A stretch of DNA of 20,000 nucleotides, from the IMG/VR virus record IMGVR_UViG_3300033075_001165; one strand, written 5' to 3'. This document shows, in pieces, positions 5,207 through 19,601 of the stretch; position 1 is the stretch's first letter, and the number at the start of each line of letters is the position of its first letter. Below the pieces are notes generated by a model that saw only the letters and a program-made list of their open reading frames with translations, did no database searches and was not told the origin of the DNA. The position numbers and the translations under genes were made by a program. The DNA is from an uncultured virus (IMG/VR IMGVR_UViG_3300033075_001165). Its lineage: Duplodnaviria; Heunggongvirae; Uroviricota; Caudoviricetes.

Positions 5207-5208
5207 TG

Positions 5209-5793
5209 TTATTTATCTTTTATTATAATTACTACTTTTTGTTCAATTTGTTTTACTTTAATTTGAGAGGGGATAAACTTAGATACAATTCGAGGGCTAT
5301 CATCGGCGATAATTTTCATTTTAACTAACGCGTCGCCTATATGTTTAAAGCTGGCACAAAAATTATCCCAGTCCATAAATCTATTTTTATATCCAATGTA
5401 TTCAATAGTTACTTCGCCTATATGTTGTCTCATTTTGTTTTCTCGAAGCTGTTGAGATATGATAGTTTGATAAAGCTCTTTTTGTTTCTTTGTATTTGAC
5501 CAGTGACTTCTCATTAATCCTTTACTTCCGTTTAATCCAGCTATTAATCCGTCAATTACTAATACAGAGTGTTGGGGTAAAGAAATGGACGTAGAATCAT
5601 TAATTTCAGTAGGTTTAGTTAAGGTGTGCGTTTTTCTTTGAACAGAAGCGTTAGTTTCTATTGGAATATACCCTTTCTTTTGCCCTATAAACCCCTTTTT
5701 TATAACAGGAGGTATAAAGTTGCCATTAACATCTTTAGTGTATCCACGCTCAAGAAACCAGTCCTCTGTAAAATTATCAGGTTTTTTAGCCAT
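5209..5793 (-). CDS. RusA-like Holliday junction resolvase
   Basis: DWDN...K...DALV...IIADDS catalytic-type motif (DxDN/K/D/DD). Confidence 0.75.
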   Translation of the reverse strand: MAKKPDNFTEDWFLERGYTKDVNGNFIPPVIKKGFIGQKKGYIPIETNASVQRKTHTLTKPTEINDSTSISLPQHSVLVIDGLIAGLNGSKGLMRSHWSNTKKQKELYQTIISQQLRENKMRQHIGEVTIEYIGYKNRFMDWDNFCASFKHIGDALVKMKIIADDSPRIVSKFIPSQIKVKQIEQKVVIIIKDK

Positions 5794-5968
5794 TGGTTAA
5801 AAATGAATTTAATATAGTTCTATTTGGGCTATTGCCATAAATCATTTTCATTAATTGACTTGCTTGTCTTGTAGAAATAAGGATTAAATCTTTCTTTACC
5901 CGTTTTTTTAATTTTCGGAGTAATCGTTTACATTTATACCAATCTCTTCTCATTACTTTACCCTCCAA
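5786..5968 (-). CDS. Small basic hypothetical protein
   Basis: Overlaps both neighbours in a tightly packed operon. Confidence 0.45.
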   Translation of the reverse strand: MEGKVMRRDWYKCKRLLRKLKKRVKKDLILISTRQASQLMKMIYGNSPNRTILNSFLTNG

Positions 5969-6198
5969 ACTCTATAACCAGATGCGGTTTTTCTTTTAAT
6001 AAATTCACGTTTAATGTACGGCATTTTGCCTTTAACAATTAATCTTCTAACCCTTGAGCAATTTTGTAAAAACCCGTACGATTCGTGATTTGTTTTAAAA
6101 AATATACTATCTCCTGTTTTCATTTTAATAATGATTTCGGATATTCCTTTTACGCCAATTTTTGGAGGCGGTATAGGTATGTTTTTTTCTATTTTCAT
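5953..6198 (-). CDS. Small phage protein (MKIEKNIPIP... RVWRV family), possibly DNA-binding
   Basis: Recognisable N-terminal KIEKNIPIP, M.GDS.F and C-terminal RVWR motifs. Confidence 0.65.
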   Translation of the reverse strand: MKIEKNIPIPPPKIGVKGISEIIIKMKTGDSIFFKTNHESYGFLQNCSRVRRLIVKGKMPYIKREFIKRKTASGYRVWRVK

Positions 6199-6527
6199 TT
6201 AAATAGTTCTTGGTGTTTTTTAAGATTATTTATACACTCCAATTCATTATACGCTGATATTTCATACACAATTTTTCCTTTTTTAATCATTGGCTCTCCT
6301 ATGGTTAATAAAATTTTTATCCCATATCGAAAACATAACCATAGAACTTGAACTTGTGTAAGTCCTGAAAAATTCTCCTCTTTACGATAGTTCGACATTT
6401 GTGATTTAGTTAAAATCATACCCCTCTCCTCAGCATCTTTAATGATATGAGCGTTTTTTAATCCAAGTTCATTCCATCGTGTTAAGAGGCATTTGTGTAT
6501 TCCTTTTGATTCTTTAATTAAGTCCAT
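6195..6527 (-). CDS. Hypothetical protein, possible HTH
   Basis: LTKSQMSNYRK resembles an HTH recognition helix; ATGA overlap with the next gene. Confidence 0.55.
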   Translation of the reverse strand: MDLIKESKGIHKCLLTRWNELGLKNAHIIKDAEERGMILTKSQMSNYRKEENFSGLTQVQVLWLCFRYGIKILLTIGEPMIKKGKIVYEISAYNELECINNLKKHQELFK

Positions 6528-6529
6528 AA

Positions 6530-6850
6530 TTATACAGTGTATTCTTTAGCAAATTGTTCCCACATAAATTTAACGGGGGACTCTTTAATTTCTTTTACAT
6601 TTAGTTTTAATTCTTCAGGAGTGATTTTACCTTGATAAAGAGTTTGTCCAACTACATATTTACCATCTTCTCTTATTTCAATAATTAATACTTGAGAGTT
6701 AGTTGATTCATAAGATTCTGCACCTCTGCAAATAGGGTTTTCATACACTTCACCGCGAAATTCTAATCCTATTTCTTTTCCTTTTTTGTTAATTAATCCA
6801 TGTTCTGTGTAGTTATGGATAATCGTGTTTTCTGGGGTTATTGTTTCCAT
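6530..6850 (-). CDS. Hypothetical protein
   Basis: 106 aa, tightly packed in the operon. Confidence 0.65.
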   Translation of the reverse strand: METITPENTIIHNYTEHGLINKKGKEIGLEFRGEVYENPICRGAESYESTNSQVLIIEIREDGKYVVGQTLYQGKITPEELKLNVKEIKESPVKFMWEQFAKEYTV

Positions 6851-7306
6851 TTATTTTTTAATAATTGTTTTATAATATCGTGAATGATACTGCTCAGGGT
6901 CGGGGGTTGAAATATCATTTTCATCACACCAAAATCTTACTTTTTCTATAAACTCTGAGTATTCTTTTTTACTTAAATCGGCGCTACTTCTTACTTTATG
7001 CCTAATGTAGCTTTTGTCGGGCGTTACAACTTGTTCGGTGTAGCTTAGAAACAAATCAGCGAAAAATTCATGTATCTTATCATTGTTTTCAAAGTGAGCA
7101 AAATATTCAGAGTTTTTGCAAGCTGAATATATTGCCCCCCTTAGATACCCATGCATGTCGATTGAAGGTTTTTTATGCTGTTCTTCAATTATCTCCACAA
7201 AATTCTTTCCTTCAAGTTCTTGCAATTGTTGTTTATAAAGAAAGGGATTATCATACAGCTTTTTGCCGTTGACTACCCTTCCTCTATGTTTAATTACAAG
7301 TTTCAC
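6851..7306 (-). CDS. NinB/Orf-like recombination protein
   Basis: GYLRG...IHEFF...F and C-terminal RSSADLSKKEYSEFIEKVRFWC...I.TPDP motif; start codon uncertain. Confidence 0.7.
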   Translation of the reverse strand: MKLVIKHRGRVVNGKKLYDNPFLYKQQLQELEGKNFVEIIEEQHKKPSIDMHGYLRGAIYSACKNSEYFAHFENNDKIHEFFADLFLSYTEQVVTPDKSYIRHKVRSSADLSKKEYSEFIEKVRFWCDENDISTPDPEQYHSRYYKTIIKK

Positions 7307-7309
7307 AGA

Positions 7310-8080
7310 CTAAAACGGAAGGCCACTTTCTTCATTAGTATCAACACTATCTACACCTTGTATAATAGCATTTTTTATGGCGGGGTCAGCGAGATTAGAT
7401 TTACTGCTATTAACCGTTTCTGTGGCTACTGGCGCATTATTTGTAACGGCTGGTGTTTCGGTAGGGGCGGTGGCGTTACGTTCAAAATAAGCCTTTAAAT
7501 ACTCCTGTAATGTTTTGTCTAATTCAATAGCTTCAAGATTAGTTTCTTCTTTAATCTTTACAGCTTCAAACTTAGGCTCAAAATATTTTGTAGCTCCTTT
7601 TTTAGCGGGAGTGGCTGATTTAACCGTAACAGCACACTCCATAATTTTATTAGCTTTACAGAATTCAATCCAACTTGATAAAGCAGAACCGCGCATTTGA
7701 ATGTTGGCTAATCCTAAATTTTTGCCATCCATTTTAATTCCAATATACACCGATTGACAGTATTCAACTCCGTCTGCCGCCATTTTAGCCTTAATTTGTT
7801 CCCAAGTTCCAGTCATTTCAAGTCCTTTCTTAGAACGAACTGTTATAAGGTCTTTACGAATATCTTTTACTTCATTACTCCAATAACCGCCTTGATTGGC
7901 ATCATTAAACCCTTTTACAGTAGCGCAAGTATCAAGTACTAAAAATGTGAAGGGTAAAGGAACATCAACGTTTTGTTTTAATTCCTTATCATAATATTTA
8001 AAATTTCCGTTACTTCCTGACCATTCGTAAAAACGTGCTGCTGGATTAACTAATTGTTCATTTGGATTACTTCTACTCAT
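7310..8080 (-). CDS. Putative single-stranded DNA-binding protein
   Basis: Globular N-terminal domain, low-complexity linker and acidic tail ending EESGLPF. Confidence 0.6.
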   Translation of the reverse strand: MSRSNPNEQLVNPAARFYEWSGSNGNFKYYDKELKQNVDVPLPFTFLVLDTCATVKGFNDANQGGYWSNEVKDIRKDLITVRSKKGLEMTGTWEQIKAKMAADGVEYCQSVYIGIKMDGKNLGLANIQMRGSALSSWIEFCKANKIMECAVTVKSATPAKKGATKYFEPKFEAVKIKEETNLEAIELDKTLQEYLKAYFERNATAPTETPAVTNNAPVATETVNSSKSNLADPAIKNAIIQGVDSVDTNEESGLPF

Positions 8081-8116
8081 TTTATTTGTTTTTTAGATTA
8101 TTAATTTATCGGTTTA

Positions 8117-8162
8117 TATTTTACAAAGATACTAAAGGTTATTATATTTTACAACTTTATTT
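8117..8162 (-). promoter_or_regulatory. Bacteroidetes-type sigma-A promoter
   Basis: TATCTTTG (TAnnTTTG, -7) at 8124-8131 with TTG about 20 bp upstream; near-copy of 10774-10820. Confidence 0.65.
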
Positions 8163-8169
8163 TAAGATA

Positions 8170-8451
8170 TTAACTAAGTAATTCTAAATCAGTGTAATTA
8201 GTTTTAGTGTTTCGTTTTTTATGGTATTTACGTTGATATTTTTTGCGGGATTTTGTTAATCCTTTCTTCTTATTTCCATGTGTTTTTATAACTCCAAAAA
8301 AGGGTACGTCCAATCTAAATACCTGACCTCTTTTTAACACTCTGTTTATAGGAGAAACATAAGACTGTATTATCATACGAATGGCTTTTTCTTCAAATCT
8401 TGGATTCATCCGCGATAATTTTCTGTAAATATTATCCTTCTTAACTAGCAA
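8170..8451 (-). CDS. HU/IHF-like small basic DNA-binding protein (divergent)
   Basis: Helical N-terminus then VLKRGQVFRLDVPFFGVIK resembling the HU L..G..V...FG.F motif; very basic tail. Confidence 0.5.
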   Translation of the reverse strand: MLVKKDNIYRKLSRMNPRFEEKAIRMIIQSYVSPINRVLKRGQVFRLDVPFFGVIKTHGNKKKGLTKSRKKYQRKYHKKRNTKTNYTDLELLS

Positions 8452-9337
8452 TAGATAGTGTTTTTGTTTGATTTAAAGAATTATTTAATAACAAAGCGTC
8501 TACCTTATCAAAGTTGTTTTGCATTCCTTGTATGGTTAATCTGCAATAATAATCGCGGGTAGTTTGAATATCGGCGTGTCCTAAAAATTCACTTACGTAC
8601 ATATCAGAAGCGCCGTTATCAAGTAGGTGGGTGGCACGGGATGAGCGTAATATATGTGGATAAACTCTTTTATCTATTCCGCAAAGCTTGGCAGTGTTTT
8701 TAATAATATTTTCCACTGATTTAGCGGAATATTGCAATCTACCACCATCACCGTTAAATACATAAACGTGGGGGACAAAATCGGCTAAGTATTGGATAAG
8801 TAGTTCTTTTGTTTGTTCAGGGATTGTAATCACTCTGCTTTTACCATATTTGCTTCCTATTATTGTTATTCTTCTATCGTGGGATAAATGCTCTATTTTA
8901 AGATTAAGTAGTTCTCCGCGCCTTAAAGCGCCATAATAAAGCAAATTAATAATCGCCAGATGTTTTAAATAAATAGGGGCATTACACATAGCCATACATT
9001 CTTGATAACTTAAAATGTTAGGAGTTTTAAGGGGATTGTCGTGATATTCTAAGTTTTTACATTGAGTGTATTTGCCATTAATTTTATAAAGACGTTTTAT
9101 AGATGCTATGAATGAATTTATATAAGCTGGAGAATATTCTTGTTCTTTTAAATAAACAATATAATCTTCAAGTTTTTCTTGGTTGCACAGTAGCACTGAA
9201 ATAGAGTCAAATTTACCCCATTCCATAAACATTCCTATGTTGTTACAATAAGTTTTAGCAGTTTTGAAATTTCCACCAACTGCCAAAATCTTTCGACTAA
9301 ATTTTTTTAAAAATTCTTTATTTTCTTCTTGTAACAT
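8441..9337 (-). CDS. Tyrosine recombinase, putative cassette integrase of the integron-like system
   Basis: Catalytic set intact: LRRGE (R), SKYGKSR (K), HILR (HxxR), LGH, TTRDYY (Y). No IntI-type insertion between the K loop and YVF. Divergent from an attI-like site 45 bp upstream. Confidence 0.9.
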   Translation of the reverse strand: MLQEENKEFLKKFSRKILAVGGNFKTAKTYCNNIGMFMEWGKFDSISVLLCNQEKLEDYIVYLKEQEYSPAYINSFIASIKRLYKINGKYTQCKNLEYHDNPLKTPNILSYQECMAMCNAPIYLKHLAIINLLYYGALRRGELLNLKIEHLSHDRRITIIGSKYGKSRVITIPEQTKELLIQYLADFVPHVYVFNGDGGRLQYSAKSVENIIKNTAKLCGIDKRVYPHILRSSRATHLLDNGASDMYVSEFLGHADIQTTRDYYCRLTIQGMQNNFDKVDALLLNNSLNQTKTLSIAS

Positions 9338-9385
9338 ATTGATTGTTAATTTGTTTTTATATAGAATGCGTTAATAAGAGAGTTA
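9292..9385 (+). repeat. 94-bp direct repeat copy 1: integrase 5' end plus attI-like site (attI-1, crossover G|TT at 9382)
   Basis: 93/94 identical to 15448-15541 (single C/T at 9328 vs 15484); identity stops right after ...AGAGAGTTA. Confidence 0.92.
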
Positions 9386-9425
9386 TGTTCAATTTTATTT
9401 TATTAATTTTTAAAAGCCTACGCAC

Positions 9426-9773
9426 CTATGTTCGTGTATAGTCAATCCCTCTATCATCATAATCCCAATCACTATCAATAGTAAATTTATCAATCATTTC
9501 TGTTTGGTATTCTATTGATTTTTTCAGCCCCTCAATTTGCGTTTTAAGTCCTTTTACTTTCAACTCTCTTTGCTCTTTAATGTATTGTTTTGCTTCATCT
9601 AAACTTTTGAAATATTTATCTGAAACCATACTTAAACAAATTCGCCAATTGTATTCAGTTCCTCTGCTTCTCAACGCTCTAACAAATGCGTATCTGTCTG
9701 TCAGGTTTACGCAATCACGTTCCCATATTCTAACTAAATCATCTTTTACTACATACACTTTGAAAAATTCCAT
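9426..9773 (-). CDS. Cassette 1 hypothetical protein
   Basis: ATG at 9773 (MEFFKVY...) preferred; the upstream in-frame extension to 9818 runs through an inverted repeat. Confidence 0.7.
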   Translation of the reverse strand: MEFFKVYVVKDDLVRIWERDCVNLTDRYAFVRALRSRGTEYNWRICLSMVSDKYFKSLDEAKQYIKEQRELKVKGLKTQIEGLKKSIEYQTEMIDKFTIDSDWDYDDRGIDYTRT

Positions 9774-9834
9774 TTCCTTCGCTTTTTTAAAAATTAATAA
9801 AATAAAACTGCCACACACACTTGCCTACGCACCA

Positions 9835-9914
9835 ACATAACACAACCTAAAATCAAACCGCCATCACCAAACCGCTTATAAAGGCGGTCAGCTTTTAGCT
9901 TGATGCCGTTAGCG
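9835..9914 (+). other. attC-like site 1 (80 bp)
   Basis: ACATAAC-A-CAACCTAAAA..ACCGCC / GGCGGT..TTTTAGCTTG-ATGCC-GTTAGCG; AACATAAC complements GTTATGTT at 9382. Confidence 0.85.
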
Positions 9915-9920
9915 GTAATG

Positions 9921-10703
9921 CTAAAAACCGCATCGCTGACAAGCAATCTCATAATATTTAGGTTCTTTTTCAATCCCGATAAATTTACGGTTAAGTTCTT
10001 TTGCAGCCAAGCAAGTAGTTCCGCTTCCCATAGTGTTATCCATCACATTCATTCCTTCGTTAGTAAATGTACTAATCAACCACTTTAATAAACCTATTGG
10101 CTTTTCTGTTCTATGCTTTGCAATACTTGGATGTATTTTTTCAAAAGTCAATATACTTTTAGGGTGTTTCATATCACCAAGTATTTCTTTATTATCCACA
10201 AAATCAAACGCACCATAGTTATTATTGGCAGTTTGTTTTGGCTTCCCTTTACTGTGGTTTGGTTTTCCTTTTACTTTTTGTGGGTTGTAAATCGGCTGTT
10301 TTCTATAAAATACCATTATATCCTCGTGGCTTCGTAAAGGCATCCTGTTTGCGTTTAAAAATCCACTTGTAAGCACTTTGTCCCAAATCAAATTGTATTT
10401 ATGGTTTTTATCACTAAGCATCATTAATGCAGTAAACTTGTCCTGCCCAAATAAAACAATCGGAGCGTTTGGTTTTACAATTCGCCAATACTGTTCCCAT
10501 AAATTTTCAGGGTCAATCATTATATCATCTTTATTTTGCGTTACCTCATAAGGCAAATCGCAAAGCACCATATCAATACTATTATCAGGTATCAAAGGCA
10601 TAATATCCAAGCAATCGCCTTGAAATAAAGCACTACCGCTAACATCGGCTATATGCAATAGCGGGGTCGGTGCGTTCTTCAACATTTGTTCTACTATCAT
10701 CAT
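9921..10703 (-). CDS. Cassette 2: amino (m6A/m4C) DNA methyltransferase, beta class
   Basis: GDCLD, DLPY (motif IV) N-terminal; H.TEKP and DNTMGSGTT (motif I) C-terminal. Confidence 0.92.
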   Translation of the reverse strand: MMIVEQMLKNAPTPLLHIADVSGSALFQGDCLDIMPLIPDNSIDMVLCDLPYEVTQNKDDIMIDPENLWEQYWRIVKPNAPIVLFGQDKFTALMMLSDKNHKYNLIWDKVLTSGFLNANRMPLRSHEDIMVFYRKQPIYNPQKVKGKPNHSKGKPKQTANNNYGAFDFVDNKEILGDMKHPKSILTFEKIHPSIAKHRTEKPIGLLKWLISTFTNEGMNVMDNTMGSGTTCLAAKELNRKFIGIEKEPKYYEIACQRCGF

Positions 10704-10766
10704 TCGTTCTATATTTTAAGTTTTGTGTTTCAAATCCGCTACTGCACATAGCCGTAGTCGTTATAC
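10637..10766 (+). other. attC-like site 2 (130 bp)
   Basis: CGCTAAC-AT-CGGCTATATGCAATAGCGG / CCGCTACTGCACATAGCCG-TAGTC-GTTATAC; AGCACTACCGCTAAC complements the cassette start GTTAGCGGTAATGCT at 14/15. Confidence 0.9.
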
Positions 10767-10773
10767 ATCATTT

Positions 10774-10820
10774 TATACTACAAAGATAATAAAAGGTTAC
10801 AATATTTAATAACTTTATTT
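10774..10820 (-). promoter_or_regulatory. Bacteroidetes-type promoter pointing into array 1 and the integrase
   Basis: TATCTTTG at 10781-10788; about 45 bp aligns with the 8117-8162 promoter. Confidence 0.65.
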
Positions 10821-10852
10821 GTTAAATGTTTAAAACTTGGTTCATCCGCCGA

Positions 10853-12220
10853 TTAAAACGTTTCATTACTACCACTTGAAATACCCTCTGGAACGTAATC
10901 AGAGTACTTAGAATAGCGTCCGTCAAATCGGGCATATACAGGTCTGGGTGTAACATATCTGCTCTTACCAAGCCCTATTTCAACTACACCCTTTAAACTA
11001 TTGCCGTTTTCATCCACTGGATTCTTATCATAATATTCTGGGCGGTATAACAACAACACTAATATACCAACAGCCTCGATGCCTCCTGAGCCTTTTAAAT
11101 CGCTCATGCGAGGGCGAGGGGGCACACGTCTTTCAACATCGCGGGATAACTGAGATAATAGCACCATGCAAATATTGTATTTCTTAGCGATATTATTTAA
11201 TTGTTGACAACGCAAGTCTAATATCTGTTCATCTGATTTATTTTTTATTTCGTCAGGGGTATTGTTCATTAACTGCAAGTAATCTATAAAGCAAAGGATA
11301 GGGATAGTCATCGGCGTTTTTTTTCGCATCTTTCTAAATTTATTCTCCACATATTGCCAAGTTATACCCGCGGTATCATCTATCAACAGATTGTCTTTAA
11401 ATCGATTTCTTATTCCTTTAATGACGTTTATATCATCTTCGCCAGCGTTCCCGCTTCTAAGTGTAAAAGAATTGATTTCTGTGGCGTTTGATATGATGTT
11501 AGTCATAATCTCAATAGCTGGCATTTCAAGGCTAAAGAAAATAGTTGGCACTCTATCTTCAATAGCATTCTTTTTTAAGATGGTAACAAGAAACGCGGTT
11601 TTGCCCATTGCAGGGCGACCAGCGATTATATTAACCCCCTGCATTATGCCGCCAGTTTTTTCATCAAGTTCTTTTACTCCAAATGAATATCCAACTAAGG
11701 CTTTTTTATTTTCTTTAAGGTCAATTATCCTTTGTAAGGCTTCTTCAAAATATTCATCAATCTGTTTATCTTTAGATACATTATTTATTACCCCTTCAAT
11801 ATCTGTAATCTTGTTTTTAACCTTATCCAACACTTCTTGAACTTCACCATGTTCTGAACTAAAATCCGTATGAGCTTCATAGAGTACGGGTAACATTTTT
11901 CGGCGGACAAGATTATCAAATAGTATTTTCACCTTTGGCTCAGACTTAAGTGACGTGTTCATGTCAAATACAGCTTTGGAGCATAAATCTATTGATGTGT
12001 TTTTAGGATAACCAAGTTTTGTAAGTTCGTTTAAAAGAATAGAGAAATCGGTGGTAATGCTTTTTTGATGATTAAGCTTTATTATTTTATAAACCTGTTG
12101 TTTTATTTTAGAGGTAAAAATATGTTCTGAAACAAGGTGTTCGCAAGTTTCAAATAGGTCGGGCTTAGAACAGTATGTTCCAAGAATTTTATTTTCTATG
12201 TCATCAAGGTTACTGGTCAT
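10853..12220 (-). CDS. dnaB: Replicative DNA helicase, DnaB-like
   Basis: AGRPAMGKT, FFSLEM, IDYLQL, LLSQLSR, PRMSDLKGSGGIE motifs. Confidence 0.95.
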   Translation of the reverse strand: MTSNLDDIENKILGTYCSKPDLFETCEHLVSEHIFTSKIKQQVYKIIKLNHQKSITTDFSILLNELTKLGYPKNTSIDLCSKAVFDMNTSLKSEPKVKILFDNLVRRKMLPVLYEAHTDFSSEHGEVQEVLDKVKNKITDIEGVINNVSKDKQIDEYFEEALQRIIDLKENKKALVGYSFGVKELDEKTGGIMQGVNIIAGRPAMGKTAFLVTILKKNAIEDRVPTIFFSLEMPAIEIMTNIISNATEINSFTLRSGNAGEDDINVIKGIRNRFKDNLLIDDTAGITWQYVENKFRKMRKKTPMTIPILCFIDYLQLMNNTPDEIKNKSDEQILDLRCQQLNNIAKKYNICMVLLSQLSRDVERRVPPRPRMSDLKGSGGIEAVGILVLLLYRPEYYDKNPVDENGNSLKGVVEIGLGKSRYVTPRPVYARFDGRYSKYSDYVPEGISSGSNETF

Positions 12221-12765
12221 GATTTAAAATTTAAATAAGCAAATTCGCCAAAAAGTTCTTTGGCTTTTTTATCATAAGCTAAAGCTGCGTCTAATTCGTT
12301 TTTAAAACATCCTATGTGTATTTTTTTATTTTGAAATCCAATTGATGCAGTCCAAGAATAATATTCTTTTTTTATTCCGTGTTTAAGAGTGTGTTTTGTT
12401 TTTTTTAATGTAACTCCTTTGTAAATGGAGAATAGGTTTTTGTTAAACCCTCTATTAATATTGTTTTGAGAATGAGTTGCTATTCTTAAATTTATTTTCT
12501 GATTATTAACTCCGTTTCTATCGGCATGGTCTACAAATGTTTTTGGGTCTGTTAAATTCATTATAAACCTATGCATTTGCACCATTTGTCGTTTTCCAGT
12601 TAAATTATTTTTTATTCCCGCAGTAGCGTAAAAACAACTATCTCCCTTGATGGCATTCCAATTATACATATTTACTTTAAAAAAATCTTCGTCATCAACT
12701 TGAGCAAATTTTGGAGCGTCCTTGTGCTTGTTTTCTTTAAATTTGTTTAATTTTATTAATTTCAT
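12217..12765 (-). CDS. HNH homing endonuclease with C-terminal AP2 domain
   Basis: AQVDDED, MHRFIM, VDHADRNGVNNQKINLR; AP2-like W.ASI...IGCF..E.DAALAYD..A..LFGEFAYLNF. ATG at 12765 preferred over 12876. Confidence 0.9.
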   Translation of the reverse strand: MKLIKLNKFKENKHKDAPKFAQVDDEDFFKVNMYNWNAIKGDSCFYATAGIKNNLTGKRQMVQMHRFIMNLTDPKTFVDHADRNGVNNQKINLRIATHSQNNINRGFNKNLFSIYKGVTLKKTKHTLKHGIKKEYYSWTASIGFQNKKIHIGCFKNELDAALAYDKKAKELFGEFAYLNFKS

Positions 12766-12888
12766 ATTTAAAATGTTCCCTACTCCACTAAAGGCTACAC
12801 CGCTACCCTTATGGGTATTGGACAATAATGTTTCGGGAATATTTTTAATGTTTTTCATAGAACGATGTAGCGGCACAAAGATGCTAAA

Positions 12889-13254
12889 TTATTCTTTTTG
12901 AAAAAAATTATTTACTACTGAATTTTCTTTGTTATTAACAATTTTATTGACCTCAACAAACCAAACTCCCATCATTTTTTGTTTCCAGTTTTTCACTTGG
13001 TTTCCTTTAGAATCTTTCCATCCAGCTATGTCATAGTAATTAAAAGCCTTTTCTGCTGAAACTTCACTATACCCTTTCTCTTTAAAATAAGCTTTTACTT
13101 CTTCAAGTGTCGGTGGAATAAACTTAGGCTTCACTTTCTTATTATAAACACCAAGTTTAGTGAGTTGAATATTCCCATCTACTACTATATATTTAAAGAT
13201 AGTACCGTTCATTACGAACTCAGTTGATTCGGGGATTATAATAGGCTTGCTCAT
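12889..13254 (-). CDS. Replication initiator/replisome-organizer-like C-terminal domain protein
   Basis: FIPPTLEEV..YF...FNYY...GW.....VKNWK motif; upstream of DnaB. Confidence 0.65.
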   Translation of the reverse strand: MSKPIIIPESTEFVMNGTIFKYIVVDGNIQLTKLGVYNKKVKPKFIPPTLEEVKAYFKEKGYSEVSAEKAFNYYDIAGWKDSKGNQVKNWKQKMMGVWFVEVNKIVNNKENSVVNNFFQKE

Positions 13255-13601
13255 TACTCCTCAATTATAGGATTCTGAATAGTTACTTTGTTTTCTACTG
13301 GGGGTACTTGTTCTGCTAAATCACTTATAATACCTTTTTGCAACGATTTAAGCTCACTTATCAACCTTACTACATTATGCTTATGCGCTTTGTAATGCTC
13401 GTTGTAAAGAGGTCTATTGGATTCTTTTACTTTGTTTTGATAATCCAGTGTATTCTCAGCAACAATTTGAGCAAAAGAAACGGCGGCTAATGCGTTTTTG
13501 GTGGAATCAAGTTCGCTCATATCTTCGTCAAAAGAGATGCTAAATGTTTTGTCGTCATATTCTATTGAGAAATTTAGCGACCCTGTTAGTTTTTGTGTCA
13601 T
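13254..13601 (-). CDS. Hypothetical protein
   Basis: 115 aa, TAATG coupling with the next gene. Confidence 0.7.
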   Translation of the reverse strand: MTQKLTGSLNFSIEYDDKTFSISFDEDMSELDSTKNALAAVSFAQIVAENTLDYQNKVKESNRPLYNEHYKAHKHNVVRLISELKSLQKGIISDLAEQVPPVENKVTIQNPIIEE

Positions 13602-13602
13602 A

Positions 13603-15150
13603 TTATTTGGTTTTTCTATTGTTTATTTCATCAAATGCTTTTATTGCCTGTGCCTTACTTACAAATCCATCTACTTTATATCCCTTTATCCTTAATAAAT
13701 TTACCTGTGCCTCACTTGCTGGTTGAGATAAAAATATTTCATTAATCTGTTGTTTTGTGTAAGCTACATCTATAATATTAAATCCCCAATTTTTTATTGC
13801 ATTAAGCTGGGCTAAAGTTGCAGGCTCACTCATCTTAGGAGAAAGGTTTAGTTTAACACGGGGTAAAATTAATAAATTTACATGTTCATCTTTGTCTCTG
13901 TTAGTATCTATTTTTGTTAATCTTATTTCCCTGTCCTCAATTAATTTTTGTCTTTTTTCGGCTGATATAAAACATCTGTCTTGAGGTTCTTTTTCTTTTT
14001 CAATTTCGTGACAATTAATTAAATTATGTTTAGTGGTTAAATCGATAAAATCTAATACCGTCATTTTTTGACCAAATCTTCTAACGTAATTATCGTCTTT
14101 TAAACGAGTGCCGCGCCCTAATTGTTGAATGTATCGTGCCTTAGATTTAGTGGGTGCTACACATCCAATTATGCCAGTATTCGGCGCGTCAAAACCACAT
14201 GTTAAAATATTTACGTTTACTAAAACATCAATTTTACCTTCTTTGTATGCTTTAATTTTATGGCTTCTATCGCCAGTTAATTGTTCATCACTACTTACGG
14301 CTTCGGCATTCACACCTTTCATTTTGAATGATTCAACCAAGTCCAAAGCGTGTAAAATATCTACTGCAAAAAATATACCCTGTCTTCCATTACCATACTT
14401 AATATAAGAATCAGCCACCAAATTATTTCGAGACAAACAATTTACAGTTCCAGCTAATTCTTTTTGATTAAACTCCCCTCCTAATGTTTTTACTTTATCA
14501 AGACTAACGTTTGTTTTTACACGCACACAATCTATTTCACACAAATAACCTTCATCTATAGCTGTTTTAATTTCGTATTCGTAAACTTTCTCGGTAAATA
14601 AATTGCTGAGTTGTAATCCGTCAAGACGTTCGTCGGTTGCTGTTATACCGAGAAGTAATTTAGGGTTGAAATATTGGGCTGATTTAATGAATGTGGGACT
14701 CATAAAAAGATGAGCTTCGTCACATATAACAAATTCCATTTCATCAGGGTCAAATAGATGAAGGTTTCTGTGTAACGATTGAGCTGAACACATCACAATA
14801 TTACCATGTGTTTGTTTTACATCAGCCTTTACAAGTCCCATTTTAAATTCTCCGCCCGCAAAAACACCGCCATCTTTAATGTAATCAACAAATCCAAGCT
14901 CTTCTATGTGATTGGATAGGCTATCGTCAAAACGCTCTCTAATAAAGGCTAATGAGCTTTGGTCTATTAATTCTTCAGTATGGGTAATCCAAATTCCTCG
15001 TGTATAACCAAGCCTTTCAATTAGCTTAACAACTGAAAAAGTTTTACCACTTCCCACAGGTAACACCGCAAGTTGTTTATCGGAGCCTCTGTTTAGAGCT
15101 TCAATAACCGCTTCGTGAAACGTATGTTGATATGGGCGGATAGTTTTCAA
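13603..15150 (-). CDS. Superfamily 2 (DEAH) DNA helicase
   Basis: RPYQ, PVGSGKT, CDEAH, GITAT, GFDAP, QQLGRGTR; TTG start abutting the upstream stop. Confidence 0.93.
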   Translation of the reverse strand: MKTIRPYQHTFHEAVIEALNRGSDKQLAVLPVGSGKTFSVVKLIERLGYTRGIWITHTEELIDQSSLAFIRERFDDSLSNHIEELGFVDYIKDGGVFAGGEFKMGLVKADVKQTHGNIVMCSAQSLHRNLHLFDPDEMEFVICDEAHLFMSPTFIKSAQYFNPKLLLGITATDERLDGLQLSNLFTEKVYEYEIKTAIDEGYLCEIDCVRVKTNVSLDKVKTLGGEFNQKELAGTVNCLSRNNLVADSYIKYGNGRQGIFFAVDILHALDLVESFKMKGVNAEAVSSDEQLTGDRSHKIKAYKEGKIDVLVNVNILTCGFDAPNTGIIGCVAPTKSKARYIQQLGRGTRLKDDNYVRRFGQKMTVLDFIDLTTKHNLINCHEIEKEKEPQDRCFISAEKRQKLIEDREIRLTKIDTNRDKDEHVNLLILPRVKLNLSPKMSEPATLAQLNAIKNWGFNIIDVAYTKQQINEIFLSQPASEAQVNLLRIKGYKVDGFVSKAQAIKAFDEINNRKTK

Positions 15151-15423
15151 TTATACTTTAAACTCAATAGGTGAAACATTAATTGACACTATAATTTCTT
15201 CTTTTTGTAATTGTGATAAGAAAGCATTTACTAAATGTGTCTTGTATGTGTTATGGTTTTTGTTTGATAATTTCCAGCATTTCTTTTTTACATCCATCGG
15301 CAGTTCAATTTTCTTCACTTCTTCTATCCAATCATAAATAAGATGCCCGCTTGAGCAAGTTCCATGTTCATAGAATGATTTTAATCCATGTGCGATTAAT
15401 TGTGTCCGCCAATCAATTTTCAT
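15151..15423 (-). CDS. Hypothetical protein
   Basis: 90 aa, abuts the helicase start. Confidence 0.65.
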   Translation of the reverse strand: MKIDWRTQLIAHGLKSFYEHGTCSSGHLIYDWIEEVKKIELPMDVKKKCWKLSNKNHNTYKTHLVNAFLSQLQKEEIIVSINVSPIEFKV

Positions 15424-15493
15424 TTATTAGACAAATCATTGTTTTTGTTCGACTAAATTTTTTTAAAAATTCTTTATTTTCTTTTTGTAACAT
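15413..15493 (-). pseudogene. Integrase N-terminal remnant (26-aa ORF MLQKENKEFLKKFSRTKTMICLINEN)
   Basis: First 15 codons match the integrase start (one E>K change); the stop overlaps the start region of 15151-15423. Confidence 0.7.
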
Positions 15494-15541
15494 ATTGATT
15501 GTTAATTTGTTTTTATATAGAATGCGTTAATAAGAGAGTTA
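15448..15541 (+). repeat. 94-bp direct repeat copy 2: attI-like site 2 (crossover G|TT at 15538)
   Basis: 93/94 identical to 9292-9385; diverges after GTTA into cassette 3. Confidence 0.92.
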
Positions 15542-15550
15542 GCGGTAATA

Positions 15551-15937
15551 CTAATACAAGTCCTCCGAGAATAATCTGTTACCTCTAATTTCTTTAATAT
15601 CCATTACCTGATTTTCTCTCAATGCAATAATTAGTGCTTCTTCACGGCTTACAAATCTGTTTTTAGAAGTAAGAAAGCCTTGTTCATTTTCTCCGCTTTC
15701 AGCATCTCGCAAACCAGTTACAGCACATTTGGTATAAATACATTGCCCGTGTCTATGTCCGCTAAATACTAATCCTGTTGGGCAGTTTTTGGGGTTTGTG
15801 CTTTCAAATGGTATTTCCTTTTTAATCGGAATTTCTTTATACCAAACAGCAGCACATATTATTCGCTCCGAACCCGTACTACCGCTAACAGCACATAGGC
15901 AAAAAAGCCGTTTCAGTTTCATAAGAATATTTTTCAT
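15551..15937 (-). CDS. Cassette 3 hypothetical phage protein
   Basis: IICAA.W...G.RH..C...QGFLTSKNRFVSREEA..IA...Q....LFSEDLY resembles a conserved phage family; candidate starts (15946/15937/15922) all lie inside attC3. Confidence 0.8.
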   Translation of the reverse strand: MKNILMKLKRLFCLCAVSGSTGSERIICAAVWYKEIPIKKEIPFESTNPKNCPTGLVFSGHRHGQCIYTKCAVTGLRDAESGENEQGFLTSKNRFVSREEALIIALRENQVMDIKEIRGNRLFSEDLY

Positions 15938-16007
15938 AAGTATCAAATTTATCGTTTCAAATTAAGTTTTCGTTACGGCTTCTTCGCCTATCTGCAAAAC
16001 GTTAGCA
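15883..16007 (+). other. attC-like site 3 (125 bp)
   Basis: CGCTAAC-A-GCACATAGGCAAAAAAGCCGT / ACGGCTTCTTCGCCTATCTGC-AAAAC-GTTAGCA; left flank complements the cassette start at 13/14. Confidence 0.9.
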
Positions 16008-16937
16008 ACAAGCGGGTGAAGTGCTTCGATTAAGCGTTGTGCAAGTTTGACCATAATTATTTTTTTGCCATCCCACGTTGGTTTTTTCAAAACCATTTAG
16101 GAAAGAAAAAATATGTTCTACTATTCCAACAGTCCAACCATCACCAATTAAGTTACCTGCTTGTGCTTTATTTAAGTTCCGTGTATATCCTTCGGGTATA
16201 TTATGCAACCTTTCAAGTTCTGTTTGTGTGCAATATCGTACCCCTTTTGTTTCGTCCATTTTTTCATCCGTGTAAATTATAGTTGTCATTCCAGTTGTTG
16301 CGTATCGGTGCAACATATATCTTTGGTTTGCATCTCGGCCGCAACTTGTATTTAAACAAGTATGTTTTTTCTTGTCAGAATATCCGTATTCCAAAACATC
16401 GTTTAAGTATATTTTTTGGTCTTTAGGTTGTGGTATCGCACATTTTCTATTGCCAAATAAATCTCTATATTCGGGGCCTATATTAGTCCAAAACAATCTA
16501 TCTCTTAATGCTCCACTTACTCTACTTCCGCAAAGTCTTACAGGTTCGGTTCCTAATAAATCGGTTATTGTATTATATCCTAAATCGTCCATAATCACAT
16601 TTTCAAGTAAATAGTAAGTCGGTTTAGTTTCTTCCAGTAATCGAATGTATTCGTAAAATAACATTGATTTCATACCTTTTAACCCGTCTCTTACACTATT
16701 TGCCCTACTAAAGTCCTGGCACGGACTGCCGCCAATCAATAAATCAATTTTAGGCAAATCAATACCTTTTACTTTGGTTACATCTCCTATTTGTTTTGTG
16801 TTCGGGAAATTATCTAAAGTGCATTGTATTGCGTGTTTTTTAATCTCACTTGCAAAATAGTTTTCAATATTAAAACCTAAATTGTTAAGCGCAATTTGTC
16901 CGCAACTCATACCATCAAATAAACTTAATACGTTCAT
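16002..16937 (-). CDS. Cassette 4: C5-cytosine DNA methyltransferase
   Basis: LSLFDG (motif I), GGSPCQ (IV), ENV (VI), R.RLFW (VIII), GDGW (X); stop codon lies in the GTTA core. Confidence 0.92.
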   Translation of the reverse strand: MNVLSLFDGMSCGQIALNNLGFNIENYFASEIKKHAIQCTLDNFPNTKQIGDVTKVKGIDLPKIDLLIGGSPCQDFSRANSVRDGLKGMKSMLFYEYIRLLEETKPTYYLLENVIMDDLGYNTITDLLGTEPVRLCGSRVSGALRDRLFWTNIGPEYRDLFGNRKCAIPQPKDQKIYLNDVLEYGYSDKKKHTCLNTSCGRDANQRYMLHRYATTGMTTIIYTDEKMDETKGVRYCTQTELERLHNIPEGYTRNLNKAQAGNLIGDGWTVGIVEHIFSFLNGFEKTNVGWQKNNYGQTCTTLNRSTSPACC

Positions 16938-17025
16938 AAAATAATTTTTTAAAATCCCCCCCTCAAAAAAAATAATTATTACAGTTGTGTTTCAATTTAG
17001 CGGTCGGAGGTTAAAGTCCGCCAGT

Positions 17026-17124
17026 TGCTAACACGTTGTATATGTCAGTTTTGCCAATTGGCATTGTGCTTTAAATGAAAGTATGTGCGTGGCAAAACCG
17101 AACACATACAACTATTCGTTATAA
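17026..17124 (+). other. attC-like site 4 (99 bp)
   Basis: TGCTAAC-AC-GTTGTATATGTCAGTTTTGCCA / TGGCAAAACCGAACACATACAAC-TATTC-GTTATAA; left flank complements the cassette start at 13/15. Confidence 0.9.
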
Positions 17125-17367
17125 GCCATTTTGAAAATCGACCTCGTGAAATTCTTTGAAGTAATCTAAAAATTGTTTTCTCGCCCAATCGTGTTCACCT
17201 TTGCTCTCAATTTCTAAATCTTCTTTCAATAAGTCTATAACAAGTGCGTTGCCTCTAAATGACATTTTGATAATGTCACCTACTTCGCTATTTTCTACAG
17301 CATCACCGTAATCGTTTTCATTAAACCAATTTTTAGTTAGGTTATGATAATAAGTTGATTGTCCCAT
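17119..17367 (-). CDS. Cassette 5 small acidic hypothetical protein
   Basis: 82 aa; stop TAA lies in the GTTA core. Confidence 0.7.
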   Translation of the reverse strand: MGQSTYYHNLTKNWFNENDYGDAVENSEVGDIIKMSFRGNALVIDLLKEDLEIESKGEHDWARKQFLDYFKEFHEVDFQNGL

Positions 17368-17409
17368 TTTGATAGTTTAAATTGTTATGCCAAACACGAA
17401 TAAAACGGC

Positions 17410-17505
17410 TTATAACAGTGGTTTGGCAAAATACCGCCATAAGCATTTGTACTAAATTTCAACATTCTGCAAGGCGGTACTTCGCCAAGCCACCAAACGT
17501 TACCT
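17410..17505 (+). other. attC-like site 5 (96 bp)
   Basis: TTATAAC-A-GTGGTTTGGCAAAATACCGCC / GGCGGTACTTCGCCAAGCCAC-CAAAC-GTTACCT; left flank complements the cassette start at 14/15. Confidence 0.9.
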
Positions 17506-17584
17506 GCAAGTGCTACGATAGTGCTTCGTATCAAACTTTCGTGTTCAAAAATTTTAAATAAAAAGCCACCGCACTTTTGTTTTT

Positions 17585-18421
17585 TCAAAACAATTTGGTT
17601 TTTTGTTCTCGTTCCCATTCAAGTATTCGTTTTAATCCTTTATTGTAGTATTCTTTTTCTTTTTCCATTACAATATATTTTCTGTTAGTTTGTAAACAAG
17701 CTATTGCAGTTGTAAATACTCCAGCAGTATTATCAAGAACAATATCATTTTCATCGGTGTATGTTTTAATTAAATACTCAAATAGTTCAGTTGGCTTTTG
17801 TGTTGGGTGTATTGCTTTTGTGCCAATCACATTTGGGTATTCTAAAACATTGTGTGGAAATCCTGTAAACGCTTCGTATTCTACTCCAATTTGATTAGGT
17901 CTTGCACCCATCATTTCTCCGTGTGCCACAGCAGTTACTTTTTTGTTTCCAATACTAACTATTCCTTGTGGGTTATATCTCATTCTTTTTTCTCCAAGTT
18001 GTGATATATGTCCCATTGGTGCTTTGCTAAATACACAACATTCTTCAATAGCTGTCATTGGTCTATTTTTGCTATGTTGCCATCCATTCGGTTTGCTTTT
18101 CTTCCAATACCAACAATACTTAAATAGTTTAAAATTTGAGTTTATCAATACCGTTGTAAATGGCTGTGAAGCTGTCAGTATTATTACTCCGTTTGGCTTT
18201 ATTATCCTTTCGTATTGTTCCCAAAGTTTTTCAAATGGCAGTATCACATCCCATTTACAAGCAATAGTTCCATACGGCAAATCACAAAGTATCATATCAA
18301 TACTTTCATCTGCTATCAATGGCATCAATTCCAAACAATCTCCTAAGTGTTCACTACTTCGGTTAGTGCTTATGCTATACCATTCTTTTTCTTCGTCTGT
18401 ATCTAAATTAAAATTTCCCAC
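17585..18421 (-). CDS. Cassette 6: amino (m6A/m4C) DNA methyltransferase, beta class
   Basis: GDCLE, DLPY, HPTQKP, variant motif I DNTAGVFTT. Start uncertain: in-frame GTG at 18421, and the frame stays open to TTG at 18568. Confidence 0.88.
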   Translation of the reverse strand: MGNFNLDTDEEKEWYSISTNRSSEHLGDCLELMPLIADESIDMILCDLPYGTIACKWDVILPFEKLWEQYERIIKPNGVIILTASQPFTTVLINSNFKLFKYCWYWKKSKPNGWQHSKNRPMTAIEECCVFSKAPMGHISQLGEKRMRYNPQGIVSIGNKKVTAVAHGEMMGARPNQIGVEYEAFTGFPHNVLEYPNVIGTKAIHPTQKPTELFEYLIKTYTDENDIVLDNTAGVFTTAIACLQTNRKYIVMEKEKEYYNKGLKRILEWEREQKTKLF

Positions 18422-18488
18422 GCTTTTTTTATTTAAAATTTTTGTTTTGTTCTTCGTATCAAGTTTATCGTTAATAAACCGCACCAGC

Positions 18489-18564
18489 AGGTAACAAGGT
18501 ATATACGCAATTTTTCCACCGCTAAACCCAACGCACAACTGCGTATATACCCGAAACGTTAGTA
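18489..18564 (+). other. attC-like site 6 (76 bp)
   Basis: AGGTAAC-AA-GGTATATACGCA / TGCGTATATACC-CGAAAC-GTTAGTA (perfect 12-bp stem); left flank complements the cassette start at 13/15. Confidence 0.9.
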
Positions 18565-18568
18565 GCAA

Positions 18569-18832
18569 TTATTTTTTGCTACGTTCTGCACAAAATTTAC
18601 AGTTTCCTTTATGTGTCATCATTTGTGAGTAACCAACGCCTGATATTAAGTATTGGCAACTGTCAAATTCTATTATTGATATTTGATAGCCATTAACTTC
18701 TACTGCTGTTTTAAATATTTTTGAGCGTTCTTCGGCTCTATCTATTTCATCACAACCGCAAAAAATAACAGCTACTAACAGCACATAAGCAAGAGCAAAG
18801 CAATTGCGGTAATTTGAGATTTTTGTTTTCAT
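18569..18832 (-). CDS. Cassette 7: small putative lipoprotein
   Basis: FALAYVLLVAVIFCGC signal/lipobox-like; D.CQY...THKGNC..C motif. Confidence 0.75.
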   Translation of the reverse strand: MKTKISNYRNCFALAYVLLVAVIFCGCDEIDRAEERSKIFKTAVEVNGYQISIIEFDSCQYLISGVGYSQMMTHKGNCKFCAERSKK

Positions 18833-18904
18833 AATAATATTTAGTTTTAAGATTAAATTTTTGTTTTTAAGGCTTTGCCCTCGCTTATCTGCGATACGTT
18901 AACG
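18773..18904 (+). other. attC-like site 7 (132 bp)
   Basis: TACTAAC-A-GCACATAAGCAAGAGCAAAGC / GCTTTGCCCTCGCTTATCTGC-GATAC-GTTAACG; left flank complements the cassette start at 20/22. Confidence 0.92.
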
Positions 18905-18910
18905 GCAATT

Positions 18911-19255
18911 CTAATCTGCTCCCCACCGCTCGGATACATAATTCATTATATCTTTTAATTCGTCTGCTACAATGGTTGTCTGCCAGCTTCCATAAGTCAA
19001 CACCTCACAGCACCATTTTGAGGATTGCTTATCCCACCAACAATATCCGCAAAAGTTCCATCCACTATATTGTGCCGATAAATCTTTGCCCTTTATTTCT
19101 GTTGCTACTTTTTCATCTATGCAATGGTCAAAGTTGCTCATTACCGTTTCTCCGAAATCCTCAAAATGCTCAGGCAACCGCACATTAGAACTGCCGTTAA
19201 CAAGGGCTTTACTCAATGCCTCTGTTTCGTTTGTATTTGAAATTTTGTTTTCCAT
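18911..19255 (-). CDS. Cassette 8 hypothetical protein (Trp/acidic-rich)
   Basis: 114 aa; ATG inside attC8 after an A-rich tract. Confidence 0.75.
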   Translation of the reverse strand: MENKISNTNETEALSKALVNGSSNVRLPEHFEDFGETVMSNFDHCIDEKVATEIKGKDLSAQYSGWNFCGYCWWDKQSSKWCCEVLTYGSWQTTIVADELKDIMNYVSERWGAD

Positions 19256-19325
19256 TTTATGTTTTATTTTAAGTTGATAATTTCGTTTTCAAAGTCGGCA
19301 CTAAATAAAGCCCCAACCGTTAAAC
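19195..19325 (+). other. attC-like site 8 (131 bp)
   Basis: CGTTAAC-AA-GGGCTTTACTCAATGCC / GGCACTAAATAAAGCCC-CAACC-GTTAAAC; left flank complements the cassette start at 17/18. Confidence 0.92.
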
Positions 19326-19601
19326 CTCCCAATATCCTTTAAAAAAATCATTAATTTTTGTGTAAGGAATAACATCCTCAGCGTCTTTATAGATAGCTTG
19401 TATGTCTAATATAGCTCTGTTTTTGTTGTTAGACCAGCAGTCTTCACAAATGTCATACATACCTTCAAAAGATATTTTGTTCGGCATGGGGCGATTACAG
19501 CAGTTACAATCTGAGTGTATGCCAGCCTCTATTGCTCTGCTTACAAAGGCTTCCACTTCATCTGTATCGCGGAATATGGGGTTATTTATCGGGCGGTTCA
19601 T
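19320..19601 (-). CDS. Hypothetical Zn-finger-like protein (resident gene, no attC seen)
   Basis: CNCC...CEDC; its stop TAA forms the GTTA of attC8. Confidence 0.65.
   Translation of the reverse strand: MNRPINNPIFRDTDEVEAFVSRAIEAGIHSDCNCCNRPMPNKISFEGMYDICEDCWSNNKNRAILDIQAIYKDAEDVIPYTKINDFFKGYWEV

Follow-up and report, generated by a model that had tools for sequence, protein, structure and literature searches.

Integrons, the textbook systems of gene-cassette capture, are defined by the integrase IntI and have been described mainly from bacterial chromosomes and plasmids. Here we report the analysis of a 20,000-nt stretch of DNA from an uncultured virus of the Caudoviricetes (IMG/VR record IMGVR_UViG_3300033075_001165; this whole stretch is referred to as the window), which carries a gene for an Xer-like tyrosine recombinase, two attI-like sites and eight one-gene cassettes bounded by hairpins. 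We propose, with a probability of about 0.75, that this region is a phage-borne, integron-like gene-capture platform consisting of a small Xer-type recombinase, a non-hairpin attI-like site and hairpin cassettes of one gene each. The reading is carried by the anatomy of the sites, the footprints at their junctions, covariation in the hairpin arms and mosaicism at the cores in related genomes, all of which were observed directly. A preliminary description of the window had suggested an integron-like platform in a phage, and its main elements, namely the cassette signature, the adjacent recombinase, the attI-like junctions and the phage setting, hold, with the qualification that the system is integron-like rather than an integron and that its genes are reversed. 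What these data support as new is an integron-like platform with a non-IntI recombinase and a mirrored gene orientation, in which the recombinase would be the catalyst.

The window shares with integrons a tyrosine recombinase gene beside a non-hairpin primary site, one-gene cassettes with imperfect palindromes of the AAC/GTT core type, a crossover footprint at GTT, variable boxes that pair only in the circle, and one strand that folds better than the other; arrays without an enzyme also occur in both systems, those of integrons being known as clusters of attC sites lacking integrases (CALINs). In contrast to integrons, the enzyme described here is without the insertion specific to IntI and falls short of the cut-offs of both integron-integrase models, the platform is phage-borne, and the genes occupy the strand that folds, each downstream of its hairpin, and read towards attI. 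A one-sided 4-nt bulge and a conserved G-T pair beside the core take the place of the extrahelical bases of integron sites.

The closest described systems are partial precedents. Integrase-less attC clusters with DNA methyltransferases among their cargo were found in phages by Qi et al. 2023 (PMC9892861), where the available text describes no cognate non-IntI recombinase (the word 'Xer' occurs 0 times), no attI and no box rule of the kind introduced below. According to the same text, P12002L_attC1 was the sole one of six sites that IntI1 did not recombine. The oligonucleotide for this site represents the hairpin between two methyltransferase genes of Polaribacter phage P12002L, which opens with GTTAGGCAC and closes with GTGCCTAAC and is of the window type; this short site was seen by eye only, and neither our TAAC/GTTA detector nor the covariance model R1 (see below) found an array in P12002L. 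The second precedent, rAID-1 (Ross et al., 10.1101/471110), comprises, as far as the available text goes, a Bacteroidales XerD-family recombinase beside co-directional accessory genes and repeats 'reminiscent of integrons', and is defined by a recombinase of the XerD type, with identity above 44% to BF9343_RS08045, that stands at the 5' end of a run of low-GC genes of one orientation. Compared by these descriptions, the window resembles rAID-1 in having an Xer-type recombinase and a co-directional array with repetitive intergenic sequences, whereas rAID-1 is chromosomal, with the recombinase at the 5' end and immunity genes as cargo, and the window is from a phage, with the recombinase at the 3' end and methyltransferases. 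Classical Xer proteins (XerA, XerC/XerD) include the best sequence match, XerA, and share the conserved catalytic residues, but the enzyme of the window scores below their equivalog cut-offs and its gene lies in a phage operon beside a cassette array, whereas classical Xer proteins act at dif sites of chromosomes. The literature searched, outside which most subscription journals lay, contained no description of such an arrangement; the earlier statement that no characterized example with this layout was known holds in part only, given the partial precedents named above.

Cassette arrays and recombination sites

According to the list of open reading frames (ORFs), all genes in the right half of the window are on the minus strand. 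The region comprises, in order, the recombinase gene (8441-9337), attI-like copy 1, two cassettes, a 4.7-kb segment of phage backbone, attI-like copy 2, and six cassettes that extend to position 19318. Its setting, judged by Pfam and PHROG matches, is a phage replication and recombination module with genes for a RusA-like resolvase, NinB/Orf, DnaB, a helicase and HNH proteins, in agreement with the phage context given previously.

The cassettes are delimited by a box rule. In each of the eight units, the left box of the terminal hairpin is exactly reverse-complementary to the 8-10 bases with which the unit opens (GTTA plus 4-6 further bases), as determined by a script; simple arithmetic over the 4-6 bases beyond the fixed GTTA/TAAC core gives a chance of about 1/256 to 1/4096 for such a match per unit. 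The paired boxes are 9382 -> 9834 (8 nt) and 9908 -> 10634 (10 nt) in array 1, and 15538 -> 15880 (10 nt), 16001 -> 17024 (9 nt), 17118 -> 17407 (10 nt), 17499 -> 18487 (9 nt), 18558 -> 18771 (9 nt) and 18898 -> 19192 (10 nt) in array 2. A chain walk by this rule alone rebuilds array 2 from 15538 to 19318 and halts at GTTAAACCT, no matching left box being present further downstream. The bases at this end, GTTAAACCTCCC (19319..19332, plus strand), presumably represent the right half of the original attI, and they resemble the array ends of a related phage contig from IMG/VR (L001; GTTATACCTC) and of Flavobacterium phage mymlan6-1 (GTTAAACCAA). Both the closure of all eight units by a TAACA...CGTTA hairpin (left core TAACA in 8/8, right core CGTTA in 8/8) and the origin of the left box in the opening GTT word of its own unit had been recognized earlier and were reproduced exactly; the palindromes, stated to be 76-132 bp long, measure 70-126 nt from core to core (74, 124, 119, 93, 90, 70, 126 and 125 nt from TAAC to GTTA for cassettes C1-C8).

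All eight cassettes and their genes were assigned to the minus strand. Cassette 1 (9382..9907, hairpin 9832-9917) has its gene at 9426-9818, the product of which is 66% identical to that of a cassette gene in a huge-phage locus (L150), and cassette 2 (9908..10759, hairpin 10634-10769) encodes an N6/N4 DNA methyltransferase (9921-10703; PF01555, E 1e-27). In array 2, cassette 3 (15538..16000, hairpin 15880-16010) contains a 131-aa ORF of phrog_839 (function unknown) with an N-terminus that reads as a signal peptide or lipoprotein-like sequence, followed by cassette 4 (16001..17117, hairpin 17023-17127) with a C5 cytosine DNA methyltransferase (16002-16937; PF00145, E 9e-31) and cassette 5 (17118..17498, hairpin 17407-17508) with an 82-aa ORF (17119-17367). 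Cassette 6 (17499..18557, hairpin 18486-18567) encodes a second N6/N4 DNA methyltransferase (PF01555, E 7e-23); the longest ORF for this gene, 17585-18568, has a TTG start beyond the cassette border and reads through the entire hairpin, and the true start is probably internal, further in. Cassette 7 (18558..18897, hairpin 18770-18907) contains an 87-aa ORF (18569-18832) with a signal-peptide-like N-terminus, again as read from the sequence, and cassette 8 (18898..19318, hairpin 19192-19328) a 114-aa ORF (18911-19255).

The arms of the hairpins vary between sites yet remain complementary, with compensatory changes at 12 of the 18 consensus pairs in a 16-site alignment. From the outside inwards, the consensus consists of the TAAC:GTTA pair, a conserved G-T pair, a one-sided 4-nt bulge, a 3-bp stem, a 2-nt mismatch and a long stem, and the arms follow a loose consensus, GGCTTTGTG...CACAAAACC. 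The covariance model R1, built from this alignment and run against nine sources, gave 58 distinct matches, in which 93.4% of the cells pair, compared with 67.4% after shuffling (0/500 shuffles reached the observed value) and 32-54% when the partners were slid, a comparison favoured by the fitting of the alignment to the model. In the window, at E<=1, it detected seven of the eight sites, all on the minus strand, and nothing else. Its scores were 88.9, 97.7, 102.1 and 105.5 bits for C2, C3, C7 and C8, which belong to the training set, and 20.9 and 38.8 bits for C4 and C6, which do not; these were the two recovered of three left-out sites. C1 was the site missed. Relative to 200 shuffles, the folding z-scores of C1-C8 on the minus strand were -3.82, -3.53, -4.64, -3.02, -3.51, -1.88, -1.66 and -0.36, five of them at or below -3.0, and the minus (coding) strand had a lower free energy than the plus strand at 8/8 sites. 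Judged by cores, boxes and covariation, the imperfect palindrome with an AAC/GTT core and with outer boxes paired only in the circle, as expected of attC, is present in 8/8 units.

The two attI-like sites claimed previously are also present. Copy 1 (9292..9385, plus strand) takes in the initial 46 nt of the recombinase gene, the adjoining 44 nt on its upstream side and the GTTA core at 9382-9385, located 45 nt upstream of the recombinase start codon; copy 2 (15448..15541, plus strand) carries a 46-nt remnant of the recombinase 5' end. The copies are identical at 93 of 94 positions, and this identity ends exactly after GTTA, beyond which they diverge (TGTTC vs GCGGT) into different cassettes. 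Such a divergence point is the footprint expected when different cassettes enter two copies of a site by exchange within the core, and as in integrons the primary site lies by the recombinase gene with insertion at G|TT. The motif AATGC.TTAATA.G..AGTTA is common to the window and L001. A degenerate attI pattern matched 10 loci in IMG/VR, among which the recombinase is encoded in the L001 contig only; the other nine were regarded as chance matches, since the recombinase is absent from their contigs.

The arrays are mirrored with respect to integrons. All eight cassette genes share the strand of the recombinase gene and are oriented towards it and attI. Each gene is preceded by its hairpin or overlaps it at the 5' end, with the start codon in the loop and the descending arm coding in four of the eight (C2, C3, C7 and C8). 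In integrons, a gene is followed by its attC and read away from attI, from a promoter at the integrase end; this order does not occur here. The recombinase had been described as divergent from a GTT site, which is correct for the site but does not extend to the genes, all of them being on one strand. At the recombinase-proximal end of an array, attI, GTTA and a cassette follow each other without a hairpin, and at the distal end a hairpin, GTTA and backbone. Because of this arrangement of the ends, and because of the attI junction and the break points, we assigned each hairpin to the gene downstream of it. The canonical unit of a gene and its own following hairpin was rejected, as it fits neither the two ends of the arrays nor the junction at attI, nor the breaks at 9908, 17117 and 17502, nor a block of identical sequence in cultured phages that includes the hairpin (see below). 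In integron terms, the top strand is the plus strand and the better-folding bottom strand is the minus strand, as in integrons, and the genes are on the bottom strand.

In the mechanism that we propose, a cassette would transiently exist as a circle, in which the variable bases flanking the TAAC/GTTA core would pair perfectly. The recombinase would exchange strands within the 4-base GTTA core, either between attI and a hairpin site or between two hairpin sites, and this exchange could insert, excise or reorder cassettes. Classical duplex recombination of the Xer/Cre type uses a 6-8 bp overlap. Because the shared core of 4-5 bases is too short for a duplex overlap and the minus strand folds better at 8/8 sites, a folded single-strand pathway like that of integrons, in which the folded bottom strand is recombined and replication resolves the product, appears plausible. 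Reading of the genes would proceed from the distal end to attI, as part of the phage replication operon. We infer that the recombinase is the catalyst and that circles form, and likewise which strand is exchanged.

The recombinase and related arrays

The proposed cassette recombinase is a protein of 298 aa (8441..9337, minus strand), intact as reported before, with a tyrosine recombinase domain (PF00589, E 5e-27) and conserved catalytic residues. Among 39 homologues, R139, K163, R231, H254 and Y264 are invariant and H228 is nearly so, and this R-K-H-R-H-Y set aligns to XerA and XerD. The best NCBIfam match is XerA_Arch with 155 bits, under its cut-off of 220; the other Xer equivalogs are also under their cut-offs (XerD, 119 vs 330 bits; XerC, 107 vs 335 bits), and the integron-integrase models are far under theirs (TIGR02249, 81 vs 265 bits; PRK15417, 35 vs 435 bits). 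The closest solved structure is XerA (4a8e), a protein of about 290 residues, and the alignment to it is near full-length, without large gaps. The alignment to Vibrio IntI4 (2a3v) splits in two, with query residues 176-208 (32 residues) opposite chain residues 173-247 (74 residues), so that about 40 IntI4 residues are missing from the recombinase in what we take to be the place of the extra domain of IntI. By its sequence, the enzyme is Xer-like and not IntI, and because it fails the IntI tests we rejected the reading of the system as a true integron.

About 80 metagenome members form the family of homologues at 50-83% identity, the next step down being 36%. A scan of IMG/VR with the single recombinase protein confirmed zero close relatives, and an alignment-based scan found one true relative, L001, and one weak match. 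The loci of a metagenome and genome scan (L003-L138) were generic Xer recombinases with 23-41% identity (66% for one 29-residue fragment) and were not used, the patterns being too general. In L001, the recombinase is 56% identical and the DnaB protein just 29%; the contig has the same attI motif, a similar array end and six different cassettes, which obey the box rule in 6/6 cases by eye. A tblastn search with DnaB against phages gave just 26-33% identical relatives among the best 30 of 37.

Mosaicism of the arrays was seen in six cultured Flavobacterium phages (L151-L156), which match each other at 97-100% over the shared parts of the region. Their arrays, at about 2000-8300, comprise approximately 8-12 sites and up to five methyltransferases, most neighbouring site pairs match 10/10, and near-identical phages have the same cassettes in a different order. 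For instance, a 728-bp GTTAACCGC unit stands after AGCATT in mymlan6-1 and tooticki6-1, and after AACAAA in snusmum6-1, hattifnatt9-1 and snork6-1, and a block at 2038-2825 of mymlan6-1 is 100% identical to 3331-4118 of snusmum6-1 from the G of GTTA to the end of the next GTTA, hairpin included. The comparison of relatives at GTT, which the preliminary description had named among its tests, came out in favour of its claim at three levels: metagenomic breaks fall at GTTA cores, cultured phages reorder whole cassettes at GTTA, and L001 holds other cassettes.

More distant relatives extend the picture. Polaribacter phage Leef_1 (L165, 6560-8730) encodes a 38%-identical 'integrase', upstream of which co-directional small genes are separated by CAAC/GTTG hairpins, with at least two box-rule junctions read by eye; in print, this annotated integrase is interpreted as a sign of temperate potential. 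Locus L150 (11588-15400 of LR756500.1, a 462-kb uncultured phage) has at least seven hairpin sites that obey the box rule, some of them decayed; its A/T-rich sites were missed by model R1. Recombinases with 33-36% identity are encoded in 4/401 Flavobacteriaceae genomes. On one such chromosome (L164, 4990-5996), two CAAC/GTTG matches of the model obey the box rule, GTTGTAAGTA/TACTTACAAC, and adjoin, in convergent orientation, a recombinase of about 380 aa that is 36% identical to that of the window.

Public contigs (contigs, not reads) from four runs of four studies, X1, X2, X5 and X15, were compared with the window. All 24 listed loose ends (21 distinct places; 480 further ends were counted) fall inside the two arrays, and by our own count 16 of the 21 distinct places are within a site or at most 10 nt from one. 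Exact breaks among those listed occur just before GTTA at 9908 and 17117 and just after it at 17502, the loose ends at 17117 (in front) and 17502 (behind) bracketing cassette 5. Contigs from all four runs start at 10759-10775, the end of array 1, an X5 contig starts at 19325, the end of array 2, and an X2 contig extends from the 90-aa gene of the backbone into attI-like copy 2 as far as 15477. One X1 contig joins 8096 to 10779 and so has neither array 1 nor the recombinase gene nor the 93-aa ORF that follows it. At 19312 in X2, C8 is succeeded by an additional GTTACCAGC unit, and the left box after the C4 methylase is another one in that run (TACGCCTAAC). The 15 listed joints (59 further ones were counted) include zero strand changes.

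A side observation concerns depth: at 9339-11339 and 17343-18676 of the window, the summed contig depth over cassette genes is several-fold that of the backbone in X1, X2 and X5 (300 vs about 27 in X1), and cassette genes or their conserved methylase domains are therefore present in many other genomes of those samples.

Weighing of alternative explanations

Several observations count against a phage-encoded capture platform. Arrays with sites of the same type occur in LR756500.1 and mymlan6-1, two phages without a tyrosine recombinase (see below). By folding energy alone, C6, C7 and C8 are unexceptional, and C1 went undetected by the covariance model. Neither a circle junction nor an excision product was seen in the public contigs, which are not reads. 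The box rule alone is compatible with a hairpin upstream or downstream of its gene. The comparison of recombinase-adjacent arrays covers three of them, those of the window, L001 and Leef_1. In the Flavobacterium phages, two different left boxes are found with one and the same hairpin, a hint that exchange may now and then take place at the left core, and one shared block ends near a left core and not at a right one. Megablast of the whole region against phages returned the attC4 site in LR756500.1 as the sole match, and there this site alone is 85.6% identical, beside a different gene; the C1 homologue in the same genome has an unrelated hairpin, and gene and hairpin are thus not invariably inherited as a pair. 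Finally, the public contigs break at the 94-bp repeat formed by the attI-like copies (9321; 15477; 15513) and no listed piece spans it, so that the support for their relative order comes from the original assembly.

It is unlikely that the arrays are real and mobile while the adjacent recombinase is a lysogeny integrase or a dimer-resolving Xer protein and a host recombinase moves the cassettes in trans. This explanation draws on the arrays of LR756500.1 and mymlan6-1, which were found without any tyrosine recombinase in a PF00589 search whose control was positive in 14/14 genomes; a phage enzyme is therefore not required there, the catalyst could be a host enzyme, and cassettes can persist, and perhaps move, without a phage enzyme. 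It is also favoured by the related recombinases on the Flavobacteriaceae chromosomes and by the box rule at the L164 sites, the one such locus read closely, and it agrees with Bartlau 2021 (PMC8776804), the available text of which takes such integrase genes as markers of a temperate lifestyle. Under it, however, one would not expect the duplication of the recombinase's own 5' end together with the upstream site, with identity stopping exactly at the core, or the order of enzyme, site and array that the window keeps in common with L001 and Leef_1 although the backbone has diverged. The joint absence of the 93-aa ORF, the recombinase and array 1 from the X1 contig, and the alignment of the whole 298-aa protein along XerA, also count against it.

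Much less probable is an interpretation of the hairpins as regulatory or structural elements, such as terminators, elements of translation control or stem-loops similar to PeSLs, which are mobile stem-loops of T4-type phages, with shuffling by homologous recombination between them. The position of the hairpins at gene starts, with the start codon inside in 4/8, the loose arm consensus, and some block borders of the Flavobacterium phages that lie 11-14 nt inside an arm are consistent with it, but the arms of neighbouring sites differ and hence provide little homology, homologous exchange would not be expected to produce the box rule or borders exactly at GTTA, and a scan of the window with Rfam gave no match.

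Tyrosine invertases are common in Bacteroidota, and inverted-repeat arms around loops of 30-80 nt, with the start codon inside in 4/8 cassettes, could suggest invertons, that is, inverted repeats flanking a short on/off switch, with the recombinase as the invertase. We consider this highly improbable and rejected it: inversion leaves the box rule, the attI duplicate and the reordering of cassettes unexplained, none of the listed joints changes strand, and NCBIfam invertase models score merely 20-26 bits against the recombinase. The least probable explanation is a misassembly, in which the 94-bp repeat, where the public contigs do break, was mis-joined and the two-array layout or the phage context is chimeric, but every cassette junction is covered in the run that contains 97% of the words, the mean word depth in X15 is 206-564 across all 30 bins, the alternative join would by our reasoning yield a 6-kb circle and a phage without DnaB, and the cassette signature is independent of the order of the arrays.

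Cargo, wider meaning and neighbouring genes

The cargo of the eight cassettes consists of three DNA methyltransferases, two signal-peptide-like proteins and three other proteins without a predicted function. The methylases probably shield the phage from host restriction enzymes, and the set as a whole is consistent with a reservoir of exchangeable genes for anti-restriction and host interaction. As available, a study of the array-bearing Flavobacterium phages (Nilsson 2020, PMC7077304) relates their methyltransferase content to plating efficiency across hosts, and mentions neither integrons nor hairpins in that text. In C3 (15880-15946) and C7 (18770-18832), the descending arm and the box encode the hydrophobic, signal-peptide-like N-terminus, and the arms of C3 and C7 resemble each other (CTAACAGCACATA); the site of recombination thus also serves to encode protein there.

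An integron-like platform of this kind would mean that integron logic is run inside a phage by a simple Xer-like enzyme, with the genes mirrored. It bears on how integron chemistry arose from Xer recombination, on whether the extra domain of IntI is needed for folded hairpins, and on the phage trade in anti-restriction genes. For annotation, the consequence is that such an 'integrase' is read as a lysogeny marker, as in the available part of PMC8776804, and that IntegronFinder-type searches would call the arrays integrase-less clusters. A broader proposal, which we hold tentatively and at slightly less than even odds, is that a simple recombinase of the Xer type, lacking the domain regarded as essential to integron chemistry, runs a second, possibly independently evolved, integron-type system common to phages and hosts of the Bacteroidota, exchanging the folded coding strand and swapping anti-restriction methyltransferases and other host-range genes. 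If this proposal is true, many 'integrases' of flavobacterial phages that have been taken as signs of lysogeny would be cassette recombinases. Cultured phage-host pairs make the system directly testable.

The genes around the arrays are all on the minus strand. Just 3' of the recombinase gene, and overlapping it by 11 nt, is the ORF of 93 aa (8170..8451), to which Pfam and PHROG assign no family and which does not resemble the ORF at the equivalent place in L001; it falls within the segment 8096-10779 that one X1 contig lacks, and its membership in the module is uncertain. The phage backbone between the arrays (10760..15447), whose first bases are the end of array 1, GTTATACATC, encodes DnaB (10853-12220), an HNH endonuclease (12217-12876), ORFs of 121 and 115 aa, a helicase (13603-15150) and an ORF of 90 aa, with the assignments based on Pfam and PHROG matches, and it contains zero hairpin sites according to both the TAAC/GTTA detector and the covariance model. 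A tRNA scan of the window gave no match.

The public contigs also differ from the window outside the arrays. In place of the 881 nt with the HNH gene (12199-13081), contigs of X15, X1 and X2 carry 214 other letters, and such presence or absence of an HNH endonuclease gene among contigs is as expected for a homing endonuclease. Contigs of X1, X2 and X5 have 17 letters where the window has a 249-aa ORF with weak matches to homing or HNH endonucleases (935-1690), and this ORF would seem to be another mobile endonuclease gene. For the greater part of the helicase gene (13914-15151), contigs of X15, X1 and X2 have 1232 unrelated letters instead, a divergent allele of about equal length.

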